Below the pieces are notes generated by a model, which did no database searches, was not told the DNA's origin, and saw only the letters and a program-made list of their open reading frames with translations. Below are positions 5,245 to 60,894 of a stretch of 64,000 nt of DNA, piece by piece (position 1 is the first letter of the stretch; each line of letters starts with the position of its first letter). The DNA lies in assembly GCA_964016885.1 (NCBI GenBank), contig OZ024745.1, positions 101,246,001-101,310,000 of the forward strand, in the 5' to 3' direction. Source of the DNA: Eledone cirrhosa (lineage: Eukaryota). A program made the position numbers and the translations under genes.

Positions 5245-5250
<6 letters not shown>

Positions 5251-5765
5251 CGTAAAATAAGAAAATTATAAAATTAACTTACTTACTAAAATATCACTTC
5301 CAACTAATTAGTTTCTGGAATGGAATAAATATATTTTCCGAAGAAGATACGGAAAAGCATTCCGTCGTCAGGGAGGTCTATTCTCATCTAAGTATCCAGG
5401 CAAAGCGTGGACACTGGAAACTTATTAAAAAATAATTCACTGGATAGGAAATAGCAAAGCGTGGACTGAATTCCTAGCCATTGAGAAAATCACTGCCTCT
5501 GCGTCGGTGGCAAATTCAAAAATAATCAATCACGTGACATCGAGGTCAATCAGTGGAAAGTGGTTTGCTAATAAGACAGCGGCCTGCTACCATAGCAGCA
5601 GTCATGGCCAATATTGCTCGACAAATAATTTGGAGATAATTATAAAGAATTAATATCTAGTAACATATATATATACATACAGATGCATATCAATGCTACC
5701 AAATATATAGGTTTTGTCTTAGTAACTTTGTGGTTCAATGCATAGGGTTGCAGAACAATAATATG

Positions 5766-7046: not shown

Positions 7047-8435
7047 ACATATCCAATTCGACATCAATAATTACTACTCCTCCATCATTTTACCACTTCT
7101 CCTTAGAGCTATCAATTTCGCTAAAACACTCACAGTGGTTAAGGATTTCGAAGTTGATGTCATCCTCAATGCCCGTAAGTCGGTGATTAATTTCGACGAC
7201 TCTATTTGGATTAAAAAACCTATCGTACCCCATTCGACGGGAGTATGGGCGCCAGCGATTCTGCGGAGGTTACTGATCTTATCGGCCTTTTCTTTCTTTT
7301 CTCTATCAAGGAAGAATTCCCCAATGTGGGCGGTGGTTTGTACCGTGATGATGGTCTTTTGTCCATGACAAAGTGCGGCCCACGTGCTTGCGACAGGTTC
7401 AGAAAAGAACTCACAGCCTTCTTTAAAGTCTTCAACCTCTCCATACAGGTTGATGCCAACCTCTCGGTCGTTAATTACCTCGACGTTACTCACAATTTGT
7501 CGAATGGCTTGCACTACCCGTATAGAAAGCCGAATGATACGCTTAATTACATAAGTAAGCATTCTAACCATCCTGTCAGCATAACCAAGAACCTGGTAAG
7601 AAACGTTTCTTTGAGGCTTTCCCGTCTATCTACTAACGAGAATATTTTCAACGACCATTCCACATATTACAATGAAGCTCTTGCTTGGAGTGAATTTGTC
7701 GATAAGGTATCATATACAGAGTACGAGAATAGACCTATGAAAAATAGATCCCGACGCATTATATGGTATAACCCACCATATAATATGGATGTGGCCACAC
7801 CATTAGCGATGATCTTTCTCTCCCTTGTTATGAAGCATTTTCTCCCTACACATAAACATAGTCACATTTTTAATAGAAATACTATTAAAATTTCTTACTC
7901 TACGACTCCTAACCTTGCACATAACATCACAGCTTCAAATTTAGCTAAACTACCTAGCCGTAGGAACACGTGCAACCCTGTAGTTAGTACTAACTGTAAT
8001 TGTAAGAATTGGGTTGACTGCTCCCTATCCGGGAAATGCCTCTCTAGTAACATTGTCTACAAATGTAAGGTTGAAATACCCACGTCCCGTAGGACCTACA
8101 TAGGGTTAACCGCCAATAGATTCAAGCAGCGTCTTTACATGCATACCCATTCTTTTCGTAACCCTTCAAGAAGGAATATGACGTCACTTTCAGCTTATAT
8201 CTGGAGTCTACAAGACAACCACACCCAATATAAGTTACACTGGGAGATCCTAGCTAGGGCTAGATCGTATAACGCAAATAAAAGACCATGTGACCTCTGT
8301 GCCGCTGGAGCCCTGGAAATACTCTACGCCAAAGACCACATCTTAAACAAAAAATCTGAGGCAATTACGGCTTGTAAACATAAATTGCACAAAACATTCC
8401 TGTATTACATCCCCACATTATACCCTAACGGATAG
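7047..8435 (+). pseudogene. Naiad-clade Penelope-like retroelement ORF (5'-truncated, one frameshift): RT + Zn linker + GIY-YIG
   Basis: [12 protein letters not shown] (RT motif A), GLYRDDGL, YRKPN..SNHP thumb, WYNPPY, CNCKNWVDCSLSGKC, IVYKC...TYIGLT...FKQRLYMH, CDLC. Confidence 0.92.
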
Positions 8436-10500: not shown

Positions 10501-10563
10501 ATTTTATTATATATATTTCAAGGGCAACCAAGACAACATTGGTACGCTTTCATCAGATAAAAT
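10501..10563 (-). ncRNA. Type I hammerhead ribozyme
   Basis: Minus: ATTTTAT-CTGATGA-AAGCGTACCAA...TTGGTTGCCCTT-GAAA-TATATA-TA-ATAAAAT. Confidence 0.8.
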
Positions 10564-14304: not shown

Positions 14305-14856
14305 TGGCTGCCAACTCGTTTTCGAGTACGGCCACTACTTTATATCCATGTAGGAGAACCCCTACCGATGCGCTGAATGAGTGTGACTTTTTAGTCCAAC
14401 CAGCGACTTGAAAACTCTGGTACAAACACTATACTTGTGACAATTATTGACACATAGTGCTGGGCCCATGGTACCATGTGACGACAAGTGCAGAGAGATC
14501 TCCAGATATAAAGCAATGCCTGTGCCGTGAAGCTTTTATAGTGAGCAAAAGCACTGCACAAAGCCAGTCCCATTCTCTTCACCAAGATGATATTTACCAA
14601 AAAGAAGAACAAGTTAACATCATTGGATACCATCAGGGTTGCAGGTGTTATATCAGAGTTTTCGTTCTCCTAGAATTCTGCCTTGACAAAGGCTAAGGAG
14701 TCATCTCTCCCGGTGATTTAGGATGGCCATTGACTCTTAAAAGCTCCTTTGCGCTTTGACAGGTTTTGGTTTTAGTCCTGCAGGATGTCCAAAGTCACCC
14801 TCCTCACCAAGAAACCTTGGTGGGGTTGCCAGTTTAGTCGCCAACGACCCGACCAT
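14300..14856 (-). mobile_element. Possible 5' UTR segment of an RTE-like LINE or related SINE
   Basis: Minus strand has TTAGCCTTTGTCAAGGCAGAATTCTAGGAGAACGAAAACTCTG, resembling RTE/SINE-associated motifs, plus several GC hairpins. No coding homology recognised. Confidence 0.3.
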
Positions 14857-14946
14857 GTATATATATACACACACAAACACACACACACGCGCACGCACGC
14901 GCACACACACACACACGCACGCACACGCACGCACACACACACACAC

Positions 14947-15003
<57 letters not shown>

Positions 15004-15004
15004 A

Positions 15005-16128
15005 ATACACTCAATTTAAACTCTGGTTTGATTAAACCGTTTCATAAATTGAATGAAAATCTCAAATACGTAAATGTTGGGTCTAACCACCCCATCTCTA
15101 TAATTAAATCTATCCCTAAAAATATTTCCCTTAGAATCTCGGGTCTATCTTCTAACATACAAGTATTTAAGGAACACGCCGAGTACTACGATAACGCCCT
15201 TAGTGAAGCAGGCTACCTCAACAAAATAGAGTACATAGATGGGAACAATCAAAACACCCAAAATAAATCCCACATAGGTAGATATAATAACACAACACCA
15301 AACCACACTTACTACCATAGTATGCACACCAGTAAACCAACAAACAAAACTAATAGAAAGCGATGCAAAGAGTACTTATGGTATAACCCCGAATACAATA
15401 GTTCCATTAGTACAAATTTACCAGTACTCTTCTTTAAAATAATTAAAAGACATTTTCCTACATCACACAAATACCACAAAATCCTAAACCCTACCACTAT
15501 AAGACTGTCATACTCTACAGCGTTAAACCTTGAACAACACATAAAAAAGATCAATACTAGAAGGTTAAACGAAAACACTAAAAACTTAAGTACAAAGAAC
15601 ACAAAAAAAACAGTAGACAATACACTACAGAACATAAATAAACCACACCTAAGTTCGTCCGCAATACTACTCCAGAGAAAACCCAACGTACACAACTGTA
15701 ACTGCACCTATCCTGACAACTGCCCCCTCGGCAATAACTGCCTGGAAAAAAATATTATTTATAAGTGTACCGTTAAATCCGGAGGCAACGAGTGGTATTA
15801 CGTGGGATCAACGGCAACATCGTTTAAATCTCGATTGTATAGGCATTCTTACTCAATAAAACACCAGAGCCAAAGAAATGTAACAACTTTAGCAGAAAAA
15901 GCTTGGACGCTCAGGGATAGCGATCAAAAGTTTACCCTAAAATGGGAGAAATTAGCTAAAACCCAAAGCTTTTCCAGGAGCCAAAATTTCTGCAAATTGT
16001 GTAATCTTGAGATTTATTACATAATCACACACAAGAAGAAACTGCTGAATAACAGAATTGAACGAACATTATTCTGCCGTCACAGAACTAAAACCCTTTT
16101 TTCCCACTACAAGCCGAATATTACATAA
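15005..16128 (+). CDS. Naiad PLE ORF, 5'-truncated but uninterrupted (RT thumb, Zn linker, GIY-YIG)
   Basis: KPFHKLNENLKYVNVGSNHP, WYNPEY, CNCTYPDNCPLGNNCL, IIYKC...YYVGST...FKSRLYRH, FCKLC. The N-terminus of the ORF call is microsatellite read-through. Confidence 0.9.
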
Positions 16129-17167: not shown

Positions 17168-17967
17168 ATTCCTTTCAACTAAACTGTATCCATTCAAATC
17201 TTTCTATATATAAATATATATATATATATATATTATATCTATTTTGGGAAACATATAAAGTAGGCTTTCAGCGCAGTATATGACAGAAACGTAAATACAC
17301 TCTGTGAAGTTTAATTACTGAACTAAAAATATAAAATATAGATTAAATATAAAAAATTTTTTTAAATTAAATTTGATCATTGGCACTGAATTCCATCTTA
17401 GAAATTTATACTGAATCGACACCTTATTCATTGTCATGTTCCATTCACATAAATCATACTTAGACATGTATCAGATTCTATTGCATCTAATGTTCTGTAA
17501 TATTATGATGGTAATTTGGAAAGATTAAAACAAAATTTTTAAAAGATAAGAGCAAACACAAACGCCATGTACATTTTATTATAAATAATTTTAGCTGAGA
17601 TTGCTTATGTTGTAAAGCAATTAATGGTTTAATATGTTCAATCATTAGAAGAAAAAGCATTTTATTACATGCGTTACATACACATTATTTCCTTGGTTTC
17701 AAATTAGGAACATTGGAAGCAATAAAATCTGATACAGCTTAGTATGATTTATGTGAATGTAACATTGGAATGAATACAGTTGAATTTAAGTCGATTTTAT
17801 CGAACCCCAGCACTTATCACCCTATTTCTGTCAAACCACTAACCTATGGGACATAAACGAACATGTTTGTGTGTGTGTATGTCCATGTCTGTACTTACGT
17901 AAATGTTTGTTTACGTCCAGTTATATATATATATATATTGTTTACGTCCAGTTATATATATATATAT

Positions 17968-18708
<741 letters not shown>

Positions 18709-21596: not shown

Positions 21597-21652
21597 ACTG
21601 CCTGATGAGGTCATAGCCATTCAATGGCTATCATCGAAATATATATAGCAGT
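21597..21652 (+). ncRNA. Type I hammerhead ribozyme
   Basis: ACTGC-CTGATGA-GGTCATAGCCATTCAATGGCTATCATC-GAAA-TATATA-TA-GCAGT. Stem II covaries with 24941 and 59055. Confidence 0.85.
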
Positions 21653-21693
21653 AAATAAAGGATTATGAGTTCATGCAATTGACTTATGTTTCG

Positions 21694-21724
<31 letters not shown>

Positions 21725-21846
21725 GAATGTATATATAGTATATTTGGCAATATACTGTACGCTTAATTAAAAACATGTTGAAGACCTTACGCTATTGTTT
21801 TAAAGTAATGACTATGTCACTTCTTTTTTCAACAAACAAAGGGAGA

Positions 21847-21894
21847 TAAGCTGACAGATCTCTGTTTCATACTGTTGGTATTCATCAGAGCTTA
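21847..21894 (-). ncRNA. Type I hammerhead ribozyme
   Basis: Minus: TAAGCT-CTGATGA-ATAC CAACA GTAT-GAAA-CAG AGAT CTG-TC-AGCTTA. Confidence 0.9.
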
Positions 21895-22124
21895 GCACTC
21901 GCCTTTGTCTGTTGAAAATTATAAATGTTGGATTCTTATAGAATTCCAGTAATAATCAGGAACTGATTATACAGAGCGGTTGCCAGTCCAGCAAAAATTC
22001 AATATTAGAATTGGTGCTCTGAAATAGCGATGTATATATGAATGTATATATAGTGTATTTGGCAATATACTGGAATTCTATAAGAATCCAACATTTATAA
22101 TTTTCAACAGACAAAGGCGAGTGC

Positions 22125-22172
22125 TAAGCTCTGATGAATACCAACAGTATGAAACAGAGAGCTGTCAGCTTA
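22125..22172 (+). ncRNA. Type I hammerhead ribozyme (canonical, GUC site at 22164-22166)
   Basis: TAAGCT-CTGATGA-ATAC CAACA GTAT-GAAA-CAG AGAG CTG-TC-AGCTTA. Stem I extends past an internal loop: TTTTCAACAGACAAAGG / CCTTTGTTTGTTGAAAA. Confidence 0.92.
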
Positions 22173-22339: not shown

Positions 22340-23610
22340 TAAGGCCCATGGCCAAACTATATCTTACAACCCGAGGCGCCATGATAGAGATAGACCATCG
22401 GACCCCCCGACCCACGGTATCCGGGAGGGGGGAACCCTAACAGTGCAGGTAGAGTGGAAGCCACTAAACCCCATGAACCCGGCACCACCACATTAGAGAA
22501 AAGGACGCGTACGCCTAGTCATGGGAGGAAATCCAGTACGCGAGGTGGTCTCAGGAGTGATAATAACCACCCCGGGCCCGACGCCCCCAACCGCAAGACA
22601 CGAAGCGGGACTGACGGAGGATCATCCAATTGTAGAACTCTCATCATGGGCACACACACCACCCAACAGGTACGGGCCGAGAAGCTAGCAAAACACATAG
22701 CGCTCAAAGGGGAAACAACAATACGGGAACTAGTAGCAACCCAACAACTCCCCAACAGCCTACAGCACGCTCAACCCATCCACATAGGAATAGACTAAGA
22801 AAAATTACGTGGTGCAACCCACCCTACTAAGGAACCTAAAGACCAGCATGGCCCGGTCATTCTTTAGAGCACTAGATAAATGCTTCCCGGGGGACCACAG
22901 ATTCCACAAGATCTTCAACAGACACACTGTGAAGCTCTCGTATTCTACCACGCGCAACGTAGCCCAGCACATAGCTAGCAATAGGGGTAGACTTAAAAAC
23001 TACACACAACCAGCAGCTGGCAATATAAGCACCCAGCAGAGCCATGTAGGGGGAAGGAATGGTGGACCCGGTACCCACCCTGGGAACCCAAACAGACCCA
23101 GGGACCCCCCACCGGGCCCAGGGGCAGACCCCCCTATACTACGCAAAGGGAACCCCACAATAGGCACTCAGGGGTCGACCACCTCCTGCAACTGCAGAAC
23201 CCTTACATTATGTCCCCTTAGTAATGAATGCCTCATGAAGAACCTAGTATACGGATGTAGAGTAAAAAACCCCAACTCTGAGCACATTTACATAGGAGCC
23301 ACATCAACGAGCTTCAAAGACAGATGGTATAACCATCGCCATTCCTTTAATAGGGAGGGCAAAAGGAAAAGTACGGCTCTCCGAACTGATCTGGAAGCTC
23401 AAGCTGGACAGGACCCCGTACTCTCTGGCCTGGTCCCAAATCAGGAAAGTGCCACCTGATAGAGGGGGATCTGGATCTGCAACCTATGTCTCAGTGAGAC
23501 CCTCGAGATACTCAATGGTGGGAGCAGCCTAATCAAACTTAGGACCGACTTCTTTGGTACATGTAGTCACCTCAGGGCCGGAACCTTCCTCAAACTATAT
23601 GGATAACAAC
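22340..23610 (+). pseudogene. GC-rich Naiad PLE 3' ORF fragment with expanded linker, frameshifted
   Basis: FFRALDKCFPGDHRFHKIFNRHTVKLSYSTT, CNCRTLTLCPLSNECL, LVYGC...IYIGAT...FKDRWYNH, ICNLCLSE. Confidence 0.88.
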
Positions 23611-24940: not shown

Positions 24941-24993
24941 CTGCCTGAAGAGGTCACAGCCAATAATGGCTGTCACCGAAAATTATATAGCAG
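24941..24993 (+). ncRNA. Type I hammerhead at the 3' pLTR downstream of the 22340 Naiad (truncated copy at ~38081-38105)
   Basis: CTGC-CTGAAGA-GGTCACAGCCA ATAA TGGCTGTCACC-GAAA-ATTATA-TA-GCAG. Confidence 0.78.
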
Positions 24994-25402: not shown

Positions 25403-27309
<1,907 letters not shown>

Positions 27310-27777: not shown

Positions 27778-27813
27778 TCTTCTGACGAAGGATTAGCATC
27801 CGAAACGTTAAGA
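27778..27813 (+). ncRNA. Minimal type I hammerhead (relatives at 57296-57331 +, ~34920-34960 -)
   Basis: TCTT-CTGACGA-(A)GGAT TAGC ATCC-GAAA-CG-TT-AAGA. The 57296 copy has GGAC/GTCC in stem II (compensatory). Confidence 0.78.
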
Positions 27814-30984: not shown

Positions 30985-31175
30985 ATCCTGGGCTCAATCG
31001 TGGGTGACTTCATTAAGTAAGTTAATCAATACAAAGCAGAGTATAAATATTTAATATAGAAAGGCTTCTACAAGACTAGAACTGTTTCATTCGGGTGAAA
31101 TCATCAGGAACCCCTGATGATTTCACCCGAATGAAACAGCTCTAGTCCTGTAGAAGCCTTTCTATATTAAATATA
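30985..31175. mobile_element. pLTR fold-back with HHR cores on both arms
   Basis: ...TTTCATTCGGGTGAAATCATCAGG aacc CCTGATGATTTCACCCGAATGAAAC...; ~60-bp arms, in (TA)n. Confidence 0.7.
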
Positions 31176-38733: not shown

Positions 38734-38800
38734 AATTACCTCATTACCAGAGGTTTCCCGAACAAGAAACGTCCGCATTCGTTCATCAGACAAGGCAATT
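38734..38800 (-). ncRNA. Type I hammerhead in the inverted 5' pLTR
   Basis: Minus: AATTGCCTTGT-CTGATGA-ACGAA...TTCGG-GAAA-CC TCT GG-TA-ATGAGGTAATT. Confidence 0.75.
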
Positions 38801-38820: not shown

Positions 38821-40876
38821 GAAAAAGTTGTTAAAAGAATGAGATGGAAAGCTTTGATTTTCGATGGGCACTTTATCACGGACTCTACAGAATACTTTGA
38901 TATCAAGTCTCATAAATACCCATAAAGAGTAAAAGATATGACCGCTTTTGAACTAGACTTAGTTAATTTAATCAACCAAATCAAATTCCGTAAGTACTCT
39001 AACTCTTTTTAATCTAAACTCTCTAACGATATTTCAAAATTCAAATCCTCTAAAAACATGTTCATTTTCTCTGATAAAACTAAAAACTTATACGAAGTTA
39101 ATAATGACTTACATAACCAACTCTTAACAGATAGTATCACCTCCAAATACCAAATAGCTAATATAAACACCTAAGGAAGCCAAAGAATTAGCTAGTTTTT
39201 TTTTAATAGACAATAGAACAGAAAAATTGCTAAACGTAATGCCTATATCACCCTCAAAGATCACAAATCTGATTTTAATAATCGTCCCAGTTGTAGATTA
39301 ATCAACCCTGCTAAGACTGAAATCGGCCTTGCTAGCAAAAAAATATTAAATAATATAAACAAACATATTAGAAGTAAGTCTGAATTACTCCAATGGATAA
39401 ATAGCTCTTCTGTAGTACATTGGTTTAAAAATATTAAAGATAAAAATAGTTCTAGATTCACCCAATTTGACATTGTAGACTTCTACCCGTCTATTACTCA
39501 CCCTCTTTTAAGGAAAGCATTAAATTTCGCTAAAAAGTTTATCAATATTTCTGATATTGAAGAGAATGTCATTTTGCATGCTAGAACCACTTTACTGTTT
39601 ACTAATAATGACACTTGGGTAAAAAAATCTAACCCAGAGAACCTATTCGATGTCTCAATGGGTTCTTTTGACAGTGCTGACGTGTGTGATTTAGTCGGCC
39701 TATTCCTCCTACACACACTTAAAGAGAAATTCTCTAACCATTCCTTTGGGCTTTATCGTGACGATGGTCTAATACTTTCCCATACCACTATAGGCCATAA
39801 CTTAGACAGATTCAGGAAAGACTTAATAAAATCCTTCGCTAGTTTTAATCTTAAAATTACCATTGACACTAACCTTTCTAATGTTAATTTTCTAGATATA
39901 AACCTAGATCTGCCTACTGCTTCTTATAAACCGTACCATAAACCAAATGAAAATTTAAAATATATAAATAAAGGCTCTTGCCATCCTCCTATAGTTTAAA
40001 AAAATCTTATCCCTAATATTAGCCGTAGGATCTCCACCCTCTCTTCCTCAGAAGCTATTTTCAATAAGGCATCCCCTACTATAATAAAGCCCTTCAAAAT
40101 AGCGTATTTAGTGAACCGATTAACTACATACCCAACAATACTAACTCCTTTAAACATAATAATAGGAAAAGAAAAATAATCTGGTTCACCCCACCCCTAC
40201 TCTTTAGCAGTTAAAACTAATGTAGGCAAAAAACTCCTAGAGCTCTTGGATAAACATTTCCCTAGAACACATAGATACTATAATATCTTCAATAGAAACT
40301 ATGTCAAAATCAGCTACTGCTGCGGTCCTTCTATTAAATCTTATATCCTCAATAAGAAAATACCCAGAGAACATCAAAATTGCTCCTGTAGAGTCAAAAG
40401 CGAATGCCCATTACAAGGTGAATGGCCATTACAAAAGTGAATGCCCATTACACCAAAGCCATTGTATATGAGGCTAAAGTGACAACCACCAGCAACAACC
40501 TACCAGCCACCAGCGAACGATATGTGGGTATGACACAAGACAAATTCAAAACGCGTTATTACTCACATGTCGCATCTTTCCGATATTCTGAAAAAAGATT
40601 TACAACAGCTCTGGTTAGCAGAATATGGGATTTGAAAACCAAGGTATCCAATATAAATTAGATTGGTCAATTTTGAACAAATCTAAAGAATATGCAAGCG
40701 GAACAAGATGCGCACTCTGCATAAGTGAAAAATATTGGATTTTACAGAACCTTAAATCACCAAAAACCTGCCTAAATGCAAAAACAGAAATTTTCACCAG
40801 TTGCCTACACATGAAATCACACTTGCTTTCCAGCTCATATAAACTTAACTCACTTTCAGACATGTATCCTCCATAA
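38821..40876 (+). pseudogene. Naiad ORF (RT + GIY-YIG) with several stops and frameshifts
   Basis: KRMRWKA N-terminal motif, SDKTKNLY, YITLKDHK...CRLINP, FTQFDIVDFYPSI, MGSFDSADVCDLVG, GLYRDDGL, CSCRVKSECPLQGE, IVYEA...YVGMT...FKTRYYSH, CALC. Confidence 0.93.
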
Positions 40877-42421: not shown

Positions 42422-42499
42422 AATTGCCTTGTCTGATGAACGAATACGGACGTTTCTTGTATTCGTCTTATTCGTGAAACTTCTGATAATGAGGTAATT
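42422..42499 (+). ncRNA. Type I hammerhead in the 3' pLTR
   Basis: AATTGCCTTGT-CTGATGA-ACGAATA...TATTCGT-GAAA-CT TCT GA-TA-ATGAGGTAATT (11-bp stem I; stem III mismatch). Confidence 0.78.
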
Positions 42500-44273: not shown

Positions 44274-45157
44274 CTGATTTTTGTGTTTCGCTTCGCTTTT
44301 CCTGCCCGCCGAAAATGCGATTCTCGCCGTATCTCCCCCTCCGCCTTTTGGGATTCTTTCTCACGTCGTGTAGACGCGTTCTTGAGACTAGTAAAATGAG
44401 GTATCCTCTTGATAAGTCGGCAGACCTCGCAAGGACTCTATATCTTTATGATATATTGTTTTTGTTTATGCCACGAAACTACGTAGTCGAGGAATTTAGG
44501 AGCAGTTTGGGTATGATACATTTTATTACTAATTATATCTAAATGTTTCTTCTCTCTTCATAATGTATTTTTAACTCTGATACTGGTTCAGTCTAGTCCA
44601 ACTGAATTGGTCTGTCCCAGTCATTCATTGAGCAACATCGGTGAAGTTGGCACTCTTAACTCACAGTTGGGTGCGGATGCATTCATGTATATATGTGTGT
44701 GTCCGCATGTATCTGTGTGTTTCTAAATATATTGTTAATAACTCCCTCTGGTCGAGCAATCTTTGAAGTGTGGGGACAGCTGGAAAGCTTCCATTACTCA
44801 TACTTCTCGCCTTCTTCACCACGTCTTATACGGCCTCGATATTAATACCCCCTCCGCCTCCGTGGTATTTTCTTCGGGGTTATAAGAGGCTTAGCTCTGT
44901 TTCTCGACCGTTATATCGCGTGACTATCTCCCCCTCCGCCTTTTGGGATTCTTTCTCACGTCGTGTAGACGCGTTCTTGAGACTAGTAAAATGAGGTATC
45001 CTCTTGATAAGTCGGCAGACCTCGCAAGGACTCTATATCTTTATGATATATTGTTTTTGTTTATGCCACGAAACTACGTAGTCGAGGAATTTAGGAGCAG
45101 TTTGGGTATGATACATTTTATTACTAATTATATCTAAATGTTTCTTCTCTCTTCATA

Positions 45158-45163
<6 letters not shown>
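44270..45163 (+). mobile_element. 595-nt non-coding HHR element, 1.4 tandem monomers (237-bp direct terminal repeats)
   Basis: 44331-44567 is repeated at 44926-45162. Each repeat contains an HHR. (TA)n flanks. Confidence 0.88.
44404..44493 (+). ncRNA. Type I hammerhead with U3-A8 core (copies at 44999-45088 +, 60032-60121 -, 60641-60730 +)
   Basis: TCCTC-TTGATAA-GT(C)GGCA...TGCCAC-GAAA-CTACGTAG-TC-GAGGA. Confidence 0.8.
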
Positions 45164-45214
<51 letters not shown>

Positions 45215-50983: not shown

Positions 50984-51048
50984 ATTTTATTATACATATT
51001 TCAGAGGTACTGAGCTATCTTCAACAGTACGTCCTCATCAGATAAAAT
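50984..51048 (-). ncRNA. Type I hammerhead ribozyme
   Basis: Minus: ATTTTAT-CTGATGA-GGACGTACTG...CAGTACCTCT-GAAA-TATGTA-TA-ATAAAAT. Confidence 0.72.
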
Positions 51049-56601: not shown

Positions 56602-56605
<4 letters not shown>

Positions 56606-57072
56606 TAATTTAATATATCAACTAACATAGACGCACAGATGTACGTCCATGCCAGCAAATACACAGGTTATGTCATAGTACCTAGGTGGTTCAATGCAGG
56701 AGGGTGCAGAACAATAATATAAAAGACGTAAAATAAGAAAATATTTTTAAAAAAAATGTTTAAAAAATTTTTTACTTACTTACTTAAATTTTCACTCCAA
56801 CTAATTAGTTTCTGCAATGGGATAAAGACAGTTACATAATCCAACTGTCGAGAATTCATTGCGTCATCAGGGAGTCTATTCTCAGCTGAGCCTCCAGGCA
56901 ATGCGCGGACACTGGCGGCTCATATAAAAATAATACTTCGGTAGAAAGAACAGCTAGGCGAGGACTGGATTCTATGTACTGAAATTCTCACTGCTTCCAG
57001 TCAAATGACCGATTCTAAAGAATCAATCACGTGACATAGAGGCTAGTTAGAAGGAATGGGATGGTAAGATGA

Positions 57073-57075
<3 letters not shown>
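56602..57075 (-). mobile_element. ~520-nt family HHR element, permuted copy
   Basis: The end block of the 5245 copy (GCAGAACAATAATAT) is joined directly to its start block (AGACGTAAAATAAGAAAAT). Confidence 0.78.
56794..56875 (-). ncRNA. Type I hammerhead with branched stem II
   Basis: Minus: ACTCC-CTGATGA-CGCAATG...GACAGTT/AACTGTC...CATTGCA-GAAA-CTAATTAG-TT-GGAGT. Confidence 0.8.
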
Positions 57076-57131
<56 letters not shown>

Positions 57132-57731: not shown

Positions 57732-57790
57732 ATTTTGTCTGATGATAGCGTACCAAAATTTTGGTACCCTTGAAATATATATAATAGAAT
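57732..57790 (+). ncRNA. Type I hammerhead ribozyme
   Basis: ATTTTGT-CTGATGA-TAGCGTACCAA AATT TTGGTACCCTT-GAAA-TATATA-TA-ATAGAAT. Confidence 0.72.
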
Positions 57791-59054: not shown

Positions 59055-59117
59055 TTGCTGTCTGATGAGGTCATAACTTTTGCATAACAGTTATCACTGA
59101 AATACATATAACAGCGA
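59055..59117 (+). ncRNA. Type I hammerhead at the 3' pLTR
   Basis: TTGCTGT-CTGATGA-GGTCATAACT...AGTTATCACT-GAAA-TACATA-TA-ACAGCGA. Confidence 0.8.
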
Positions 59118-59787: not shown

Positions 59788-59790
<3 letters not shown>

Positions 59791-60799
59791 CAATATATTT
59801 AGAAACACACAGATACATGCGGACACACACATATATACATGAATGCATCCGCACCCAACTGTGAGTTAAGGGTGCCAACTTCACCGATGTTGCTCAATGA
59901 ATGACTGGGACAGACCAATTCAGTTGAACTAGACTGAACCAGTATCAGAGTTAAAAATACATTATGAAGAGAGAAGAAACATTTAGATATAATTAGTAAT
60001 AAAATGTATCATACCTAAACTGCTCCTAAATTCCTCGACTACGTAGTTTCGTGGCATAAACAAAAACAATATATCATAAAGATATAGAGTCCTTGCGAGG
60101 TCTGCCGACTTATCAAGAGGATACCTCATTTTACTAGTCTCAAGAACGCGTCTACACGACGTGAGAAAGAATCCCAAAAGGCGGAGGGGGAGATAGTCAC
60201 GCGATATAACGGTCGAGAAACAGAGCTAAGCCTCTTATAACCCCGAAGAAAATACCACGGAGGCGGAGGGGGCATTTATATCGAGGCCGTAGAAGAGGTG
60301 GTGAAGAAGGCGAGAAGTATGAGTAATGGAAGCTTTCCAGCTGTCCCCACACTTCAAAGATTGCTCGACCAGAGGGAGTTATTAACAATATATTTAGAAA
60401 CACACGGATACATGCAGACACACACATATATACATGAATGCATCCGCACCCAACTGTGAGTTAAGGGTGCCAACTTCACCGATGTTGCTCAATGAATGAC
60501 TGGGACAGACCAATTCAGTTGAACTAGACTGAACAGCTCTGTTTCTCGACCGTTATATCGCGTGACTATCTCCCCCTCCGCCTTTTGGGATTCTTTCTCA
60601 CGTCGTGTAGACGCGTTCTTGAGACTAGTAAAATGAGGTATCCTCTTGATAAGTCGGCAGACCTCACAAGGACTCTATATCTTTATGATATATTGTTTTT
60701 GTTTATGCCACGAAACTACGTAGTCGGTGAATTTAGGAGCAGTTTAGGTATGATACATTTTATTACTAATTATATCTAAATGTTTCTTCTCTCTTCATA

Positions 60800-60804
<5 letters not shown>
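59788..60804. mobile_element. 595-nt HHR element: 1.25 monomers on - strand plus an inverted partial monomer on + strand
   Basis: AACAATATATTTAGAAACACAC recurs at ~59789 and ~60383. The + copy starts at ~60535. Near-identical to 44331-45162. Confidence 0.88.

Positions 60805-60894
<90 letters not shown>

Follow-up and report, generated by a model that had tools for sequence, protein, structure and literature searches.

Twin hairpins with a common loop upstream of a hammerhead motif in a retrozyme-like repeat unit: a probable selected RNA structure and possible docking site

Introduction

Two adjacent hairpins with different stems and the same loop stand upstream of a hammerhead motif on the minus strand of the window (the whole 64-kb stretch of DNA that was analysed), and the arrangement occurs there in a second copy. 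What kind of element carries these twin loops, and what would read them? Animal non-LTR retrozymes are short units without coding capacity that carry a type I hammerhead. They are expressed as circular RNA and have been proposed to move by means of borrowed Penelope proteins; the RNA signal for this is not named in the accessible parts of the reports concerned (PMC7229834; bioRxiv 10.64898/2026.07.22.740005).

Results

The repeat unit and its two copies

The hairpins were found in a non-coding repeat unit of the minus strand. Copy 1 (5246-5765) was established by sequence comparison and by reads as a whole unit of 520 bp with 35% GC, lying between (TA)n tracts, and its longest ATG frame had 27 codons. 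Copy 2 (56605-57076, minus strand) was found to be a circularly permuted, slightly incomplete copy of 472 bp, also flanked by (TA)n tracts. The two copies were 73% identical over 278 columns around the hairpins and the hammerhead, and 78% identical over 97 columns in a second part. This second part stood before the first in copy 1 and after it in copy 2; the copies are therefore circular permutations of each other.

The end of copy 1 was joined back to its start (5765 to 5250) via the letters of 5246-5249 in reads and contigs. X15 contained such joints in 491 reads (71 starts) and 304 reads (36 starts), and contigs with the joint were found in X1, X4, and X9; copy 1 therefore comprises the complete unit of 520 bp. 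The joint was also present inside the dispersed, permuted copy 2, so that a closed unit is proven and a tandem array is not. When head-to-tail tandems were looked for, joints were found in all four runs mapped, and the longest pieces listed did not exceed one unit. The mapping took reads and contigs at least 80% alike (80-100%) from X15 and from X1, X4, and X9, three of the 13 runs that held part of the stretch. The unit was multi-copy, with two copies in the 64 kb and with 1835 contigs of X1, 81 of X4, 3 of X9, and 5742 reads of X15 mapped. The family was present under three organism codes, and none of the 3 contigs of X9 lay over the hairpins.

Neither of the two fully read copies adjoined an RT/GIY-YIG ORF, both being bounded by (TA)n without an ORF; on these two copies, the unit does not qualify as a pseudo-LTR of an autonomous Penelope-like element. 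It was found to be short, non-coding, low in GC, and devoid of LTRs. Judged from its sequence, the unit has the architecture of an animal non-LTR retrozyme and is a new member of this known class; circular permutation of its copies would be expected of a non-LTR retrozyme that Penelope-like elements mobilise.

The hammerhead motif and other parts of the unit

Copy 1 contained a type I hammerhead motif with a CUGACGA core at 5296-5377 (minus strand), with the cut predicted after GUU between 5302 and 5301. It had a long branched stem II, GAAA, and a 10-nt palindromic stem III. The type I motif of copy 2 was found at 56794-56875 (minus strand), with the predicted cut between 56799 and 56798. Both copies contained CUGANGA, GAAA, UH, and stems I-III with a C.A opposition at the base of stem II, together with an extra A directly 5' of GAAA and an unpaired base after the core; both scored below the Rfam thresholds. 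One contig of X1 and 6 reads of X15 skipped 80 bases (5301-5382), which is the hammerhead body, and some copies are therefore without the ribozyme. A GTAAGT splice-donor-like motif was present just 3' of the hammerhead in both copies (5278-5286 and 56775-56783, minus strand); introns are known in Penelope repeats (PMC4209133).

Folding predicted that an anti-ribozyme segment (5546-5562, and about 57043-57058 in copy 2, minus strand) pairs with the 3' strand of the hammerhead. The segment was the best non-self partner of that strand, with -16.6 and -15.5 kcal/mol in the two copies, and the predicted helix would cover the cut site in a monomer or a circle. The best-conserved stretch outside the hammerhead was a block at 5525-5545 and 57022-57042 (minus strand), with 20 of 21 letters common to both copies; it contained GTCACGTG, which we take to be an E-box, and is a candidate promoter element.

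Two further conserved hairpins were observed at about 5650-5760 and 56610-56715 (minus strand). The smaller one, whose loop is rich in A and C, was found about 46-70 nt beyond the predicted cut in the copy 1 circle and 85-108 nt beyond it in copy 2, and it recalls the AC-rich stem-loop where the PAc enzyme starts. The longer one was topped by CATCTG, and copy 2 ended at the 3' base of this hairpin.

Anatomy of the twin hairpins

The earlier note had placed four like loops with named stems beside them on the minus strand, and all four loops were located there, with the stems present in the sequence. The loops were found at 5454-5466 and 5400-5412 in copy 1 (each GTCCACGCTTTGC), followed by 56953-56965 (GTCCTCGCCTAGC) and 56898-56910 (GTCCGCGCATTGC) in copy 2. 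Counting them as four instances is right for the number of loops and not for their independence, because each of the two homologous copies contributes the same pair of paralogous sites.

Hairpin A of copy 1 (5437-5484, minus strand, loop at 5454-5466) contained an irregular stem, followed by a U-rich linker (5425-5436, minus strand) with 10 of 12 letters common to copy 2, and by hairpin B (5389-5424, minus strand, loop at 5400-5412) with an 11-pair stem and one bulged base. The corresponding hairpins A and B of copy 2 occupied 56935-56985 and 56887-56922 (minus strand), respectively. The loops were 54 nt apart in copy 1 and 55 nt apart in copy 2, and ended 28 and 27 nt before CUGANGA, respectively.

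In the best drawing, the loop contained nine unpaired letters, CCNCGCNNN, closed by G-C and U.G pairs. Two registers were found to compete in hairpin A: TAGGAA/TTCCTA, which copy 1 favoured with pair probabilities of 0.86-1.0, and a loop-anchored RGAA/TTYY register, which was favoured in copy 2 with pair probabilities of 0.65-0.85. An alternative fold of hairpin B in copy 1 (about 0.53 against 0.46) paired part of the loop. The folding energies were modest (z -1.5 to -2.6) and the plus strand folded as well (z -1.85 to -2.84); the RNA was placed on the minus strand because of the hammerhead and the U.G closing pairs. The complement of the loop core was absent from both copies, and the fixed letters are therefore unexplained by Watson-Crick pairing.

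The pattern GTCCNCGCNNNGC matched exactly at 4 places in the 64 kb, whereas 100 shuffles gave 0.01 matches on average and never more than 1, a comparison that overstates the significance since the pattern was drawn from the sites themselves. With one mismatch allowed, no extra site was found in the window.

Evidence for selection on the hairpins

The loops of hairpins A and B were identical at 10-13 of 13 letters, whereas the flanking arms shared 0-1 of 14 and 0-3 of 14 letters. Alignment of A arms with B arms was no better than that of shuffled arms (1404-1958 of 2000 shuffles as high), whereas the orthologous arms did align, with 24 of 2000 shuffles as high for A with A and 0 of 2000 for B with B. 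Since the arms are unrelated while the loops match, a simple local duplication was rejected.

Across the copies, hairpin B was paired in 24 of 26 cells, and two pairs were changed on both sides (A-U/G-C and U-A/C-G); slid controls were 15-50% paired. Hairpin A in the loop-anchored register was paired in 15 of 16 cells, with a change on both sides (G-C/A-U) and a change on one side (G.U/G-C), and a slide of +1 gave an equal covariation score. The claim that the stems covary was thus borne out as regards compensatory changes, two in hairpin B and one in hairpin A. The pair-shuffle controls, which reached the observed values in 128 of 500 (hairpin B) and 244 of 500 (hairpin A), are uninformative with only two full sequences. 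A MAFFT alignment of the four hairpins did not line up on the loops. In a simulation of neutral divergence, computed after the fact, the outcome of hairpin B occurred in about 0.25% of 200,000 trials; the neutral probability that none of the 18 fixed loop letters changes at a divergence of about 27%, also computed after the fact, was about 0.0035. As the whole unit is structured, covariation of the stems alone may reflect merely selection for a compact circle.

Variants were listed for 40 of 134 variant places, of which 7 fell in 5385-5486 and were mapped with 15 others. None of the 18 fixed loop letters was found among the 40 of 134 places listed. The A/T variant at 5408 (207 of 434 and 245 of 474 reads, X15) is the variable loop letter, and the variant at 5394 (150 of 429 and 156 of 436 reads) turns a U.U mismatch of stem B into U-A. 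The variant at 5413 is the bulge, that at 5448 a G-C/G.U change, that at 5440 a mismatch position of the outer stem, and that at 5387 a base outside the stem. The A/T variant at 5475 breaks a pair in the TAGGAA/TTCCTA register and is unpaired in the loop-anchored register. Population variation at these 40 of 134 places adds independent support for selected hairpins.

The proposal of a dedicated RNA element gains from the unrelated arms with common loops and from the compensatory changes, and the twin hairpin is probably a selected RNA structure. The motif is real and probably functional, and on present evidence it is restricted to one family.

The window and its Penelope-like surroundings

The window was found to be AT-rich, animal-like DNA (27-49% GC) with many (TA)n and (CA)n tracts. 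Fragments of Penelope-like elements were abundant in it, as truncated ORF pieces with RT and GIY-YIG motifs at 7215-8435, 14776-16128, 17942-18547, 22794-23459, and 39217-39999. Pfam RVT_1 and GIY-YIG gave weak matches in 2 of these 5 pieces. The piece at 7215-8432 had 61 longer protein relatives with 32-42% identity; the three that bear names belong to two corals and one hemichordate. The presence of a cysteine motif that separates RT from endonuclease points to the Neptune/Nematis type (by way of PMC8557442). Searches with the Penelope ORFs for loci with UTRs found none. Recent inverted and direct segmental repeats, 98-100% identical and up to 583 bp, were observed at 44330-45168 and 59788-60810.

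The window contained 29 CUGANGA...GAAA cores, including the 2 of the twin-loop unit, and many of them are not true hammerheads. Several other families of minimal hammerhead motifs were observed, with palindromic stem III and partly as back-to-back inverted pairs; such motifs were found at 1390-1681, 10510-10556, 21602-22166, 24945-24987, 26040-26087, 27782-27810, 31080-31142, 38745-38789, 42433-42488, 50993-51041, 57739-57781, and 59062-59108. The twin-loop motif was absent beside the 27 other cores and in the Penelope ORF fragments of the window, so that no autonomous partner with the motif was seen in the window. The suggestion that autonomous Penelope UTRs share the motif thus failed within the window, where the motif is no general feature of Penelope ends.

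Searches for relatives and known families

The motif had been called unrecognised, and this stood up in Rfam 15, where no match was found at the gathering threshold in the window. At E up to 10 over both copies, the motif was matched by adapt33_2 alone, whose score of 16.4 bits (60 being required; E 8.4) is not meaningful. The Sm-site consensus is RAU4-6GR; an Sm-class, snRNA-like module of two hairpins was rejected, as the U-rich linker contained no match to it in either copy.

The twin-loop pattern matched at least 121 loci in viral contigs, and among the matches listed (about 58) these were GC-rich coding or repeat sequence. Twin loop with hammerhead core matched 1 viral locus and 48 metagenome loci, and loop with core and stem III matched 3 prokaryote loci; all were judged to be chance. 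BLAST of both copies against the 173 loci from these scans gave no match at E 0.01. The pattern of hairpin B and the pattern of stem III each matched 0 viral loci and 1 prokaryote locus. Animal DNA is scarce in the viral, prokaryote, and metagenome collections, and blanks there therefore say little. Two of the chance metagenome matches (L164 and L165) looked like CRISPR arrays with a repeat beginning GTCGTCCCCGC. No description of the twin-loop motif was found in the literature, where figures, supplements, and Repbase/Dfam, which lay outside the scope of the search, may show the element. The motif is so far known from one repeat family only.

Discussion

A possible docking site and its alternatives

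Fixed unpaired letters on two interchangeable stems resemble a repeated protein-binding site, and we consider it fairly probable that the twin hairpin binds a protein of some kind. Capture by a partner RT would be the step most strongly selected in a non-coding passenger, and there are precedents in LINEs and Penelope elements; on these grounds we tentatively propose that the two hairpins are a twin docking site on the RNA of the unit, most likely for a partner Penelope-like RT-endonuclease. A Penelope protein as the specific binder is put forward with the same reserve. The points in favour are the shared loop, the unrelated stems, the compensatory changes, the read variants, the lack of a Watson-Crick partner for the fixed letters, and a window rich in RT/GIY-YIG fragments. 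Stringent LINE proteins bind the stem generally and the loop specifically (PMC4176376). A Penelope protein has been predicted to be dimeric, needs an RNA region near its own hammerhead, and starts reverse transcription inside the RNA (PMC11167929). Against docking, the region needed in this one tested element was found at the hammerhead and 3' of it, within the first 172 nt of the ORF (PMC11167929), whereas the twin loops are upstream of the hammerhead. In addition, the register of hairpin A that copy 1 favours is not the loop-anchored one, about half of its hairpin B ensemble has loop letters paired, the plus strand folds as stably, and an autonomous element with the motif was not seen in the window.

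The same structural evidence would suit an RNA-binding protein of the host, with a role in the stability, localisation, or ligation of the retrozyme RNA or in silencing the hammerhead while the RNA is circular. It has been argued that the hammerhead of animal circles is probably blocked in vivo by a factor other than self-pairing (PMC7229834), newt satellite 2 RNA occurs in a ribonucleoprotein with the candidate protein NORA (cited in PMC2837043), and an autonomous element with the motif was not seen in the window; but the anti-ribozyme helix predicted in both copies already gives a block by RNA only, and we regard a host protein as unlikely. Less likely again is a pure RNA tertiary module, in which the loops, as a loop-receptor or dimer contact, would aid the folding of the hammerhead or of two monomers. 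The fixed spacing of 27-28 nt to the core would agree with it, as would the palindromic stem III, which is typical of dimeric cleavage (PMC4209133), and a consensus fold of the two sequences that pairs an upstream GCAGTG with loop A. This pairing, however, consists of 3+3 pairs with no two-sided change and no counterpart at loop B; the loop core has no Watson-Crick partner in either copy, and a kissing contact between the loops is impossible because the letters they share are not palindromic. Equally improbable is that the 13-mers are transcription-factor sites of an internal promoter, acting as DNA, with incidental stems. They lie 59-125 bp downstream of the conserved E-box block in the same orientation, 54-55 bp apart, and promoters are carried by Penelope repeats (PMC6765202), but a double-stranded site needs neither compensatory changes in stems nor U.G closing pairs, an exact match to the Pol III B box is absent, and the unit contains T-runs of 5-8.

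An old internal duplication or chance, leaving two similar 13-mers without present function, is very improbable and already largely refuted. The pattern was defined after the fact from two sequences only, and copy 1 has the same letters in loop A and loop B, which local copying could explain; against this, the A and B arms lack similarity, and the low neutral probability computed for the 18 fixed letters speaks for their retention. Least probable of all is a part or relic of an HDV-like ribozyme, based on likeness to its loop L3, for which the consensus is UYCHCG(N)Y. UCCNCGC fits this consensus including the variable fourth letter, with three of the four loops matching and the fourth having G at the H position. 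In both copies, and at corresponding positions, a 7-nt segment upstream of loop A pairs at 6 of 7 letters with the strand that follows this loop, and the ribozymes of R2 are flexible in P1, P4, and J1/4 (PMC3774820). Even with R2-type flexibility allowed, none of 144 enumerated arrangements (36 per loop) gave P3, P1, the P1.1 G, and C..A/P2 together, and the HDV fold with its nested double pseudoknot was rejected; the earlier note, which had seen an L3-like loop and had been unable to build the pseudoknot, was right on both points. Loop A is also without a G after P1', P3 is found in some registers only, the conserved stems close a plain hairpin, and the HDV model gave no match even at E 10. 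Ranked by probability, docking of a Penelope protein is followed by a host protein, then by the tertiary module and the promoter sites side by side, then by duplication, and last by the HDV-like relic.

Docking of a Penelope-like protein would proceed as follows. The unit would be transcribed as multimers, which the hammerhead would cut into 520-nt monomers, and these would be closed into circles, as happens with other animal retrozymes. Two CCNCGC loops would be presented by the two stems, 54-55 nt apart, at about 356-368 and 410-422 of the monomer. A protein with two sites, or a dimer, would recognise the loops through their sequence and the stems through their shape; once loaded on the RNA, it would copy this RNA into (TA)n targets, and the start point of copying would vary. 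A bolder proposal, which we hold to be rather doubtful, is that a dimeric Penelope-type RT uses the twin CCNCGC loops as a bipartite signal to pick circular retrozyme RNA as its template. If true, it would be the first defined cis-signal for the mobilisation of animal retrozymes. With its fixed letters and freely changing stems, the doubled loop is a small, mutable candidate signal for recognition of retrozymes by an RT, and it makes this recognition testable with the existing in vitro Penelope assay; a portable tag of such a kind could be used to bring an RNA of choice to a telomerase-related reverse transcriptase. If a host protein is bound instead, the motif would point to a factor that handles retrozyme circles.

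Comparison with known systems

The unit resembles the animal non-LTR retrozymes as a short, low-GC, non-coding unit of high copy number, with one type I hammerhead and coexisting Penelope-like elements, and its 520 bp lie within the range of 51-972 bp given by Li, Clavereau & Pollet (bioRxiv 10.64898/2026.07.22.740005). It differs from them in exceeding the typical RNAs of 170-400 nt (Cervera & de la Pena 2020, PMC7229834; bioRxiv 10.64898/2026.07.22.740005) and in being seen as dispersed, permuted monomers in (TA)n. Besides the hammerhead, no conserved cis-motif of animal retrozymes is described in the accessible parts of these two reports (PMC7229834; bioRxiv 10.64898/2026.07.22.740005). The unit agrees with the hammerheads of Penelope pseudo-LTRs (PMC4209133) and PAc (PMC11167929) in its long stem II, the unpaired base that follows the core, its palindromic stem III, and its AT-rich targets, whereas it lacks a following ORF and has the extra A before GAAA in both copies. 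PAc has one AC-rich stem-loop as its signal, on the downstream side of the ribozyme (PMC11167929), whereas the twin loops of the unit are upstream. With the HDV-like ribozymes of R2 and L1Tc (PMC3774820, PMC4035085) the unit shares the likeness of its loop letters to L3; unlike in them, the motif is doubled, stands beside a hammerhead, and lacks the nested double pseudoknot. The 3' stem-loops of stringent L2-clade LINEs are single hairpins at a fixed 3' end, with another loop, another enzyme class, and binding shown, whereas the twin hairpins are a putative binding site. They are nevertheless like the twin hairpins in that, as we propose here for the unit, the stem is read by its shape and the loop by its sequence (UnaL2, ZfL2-1/2, and the partner SINEs; PMC4176376, PMC1636434), and their signal is common to a non-autonomous passenger (PMC4176376, PMC1636434).
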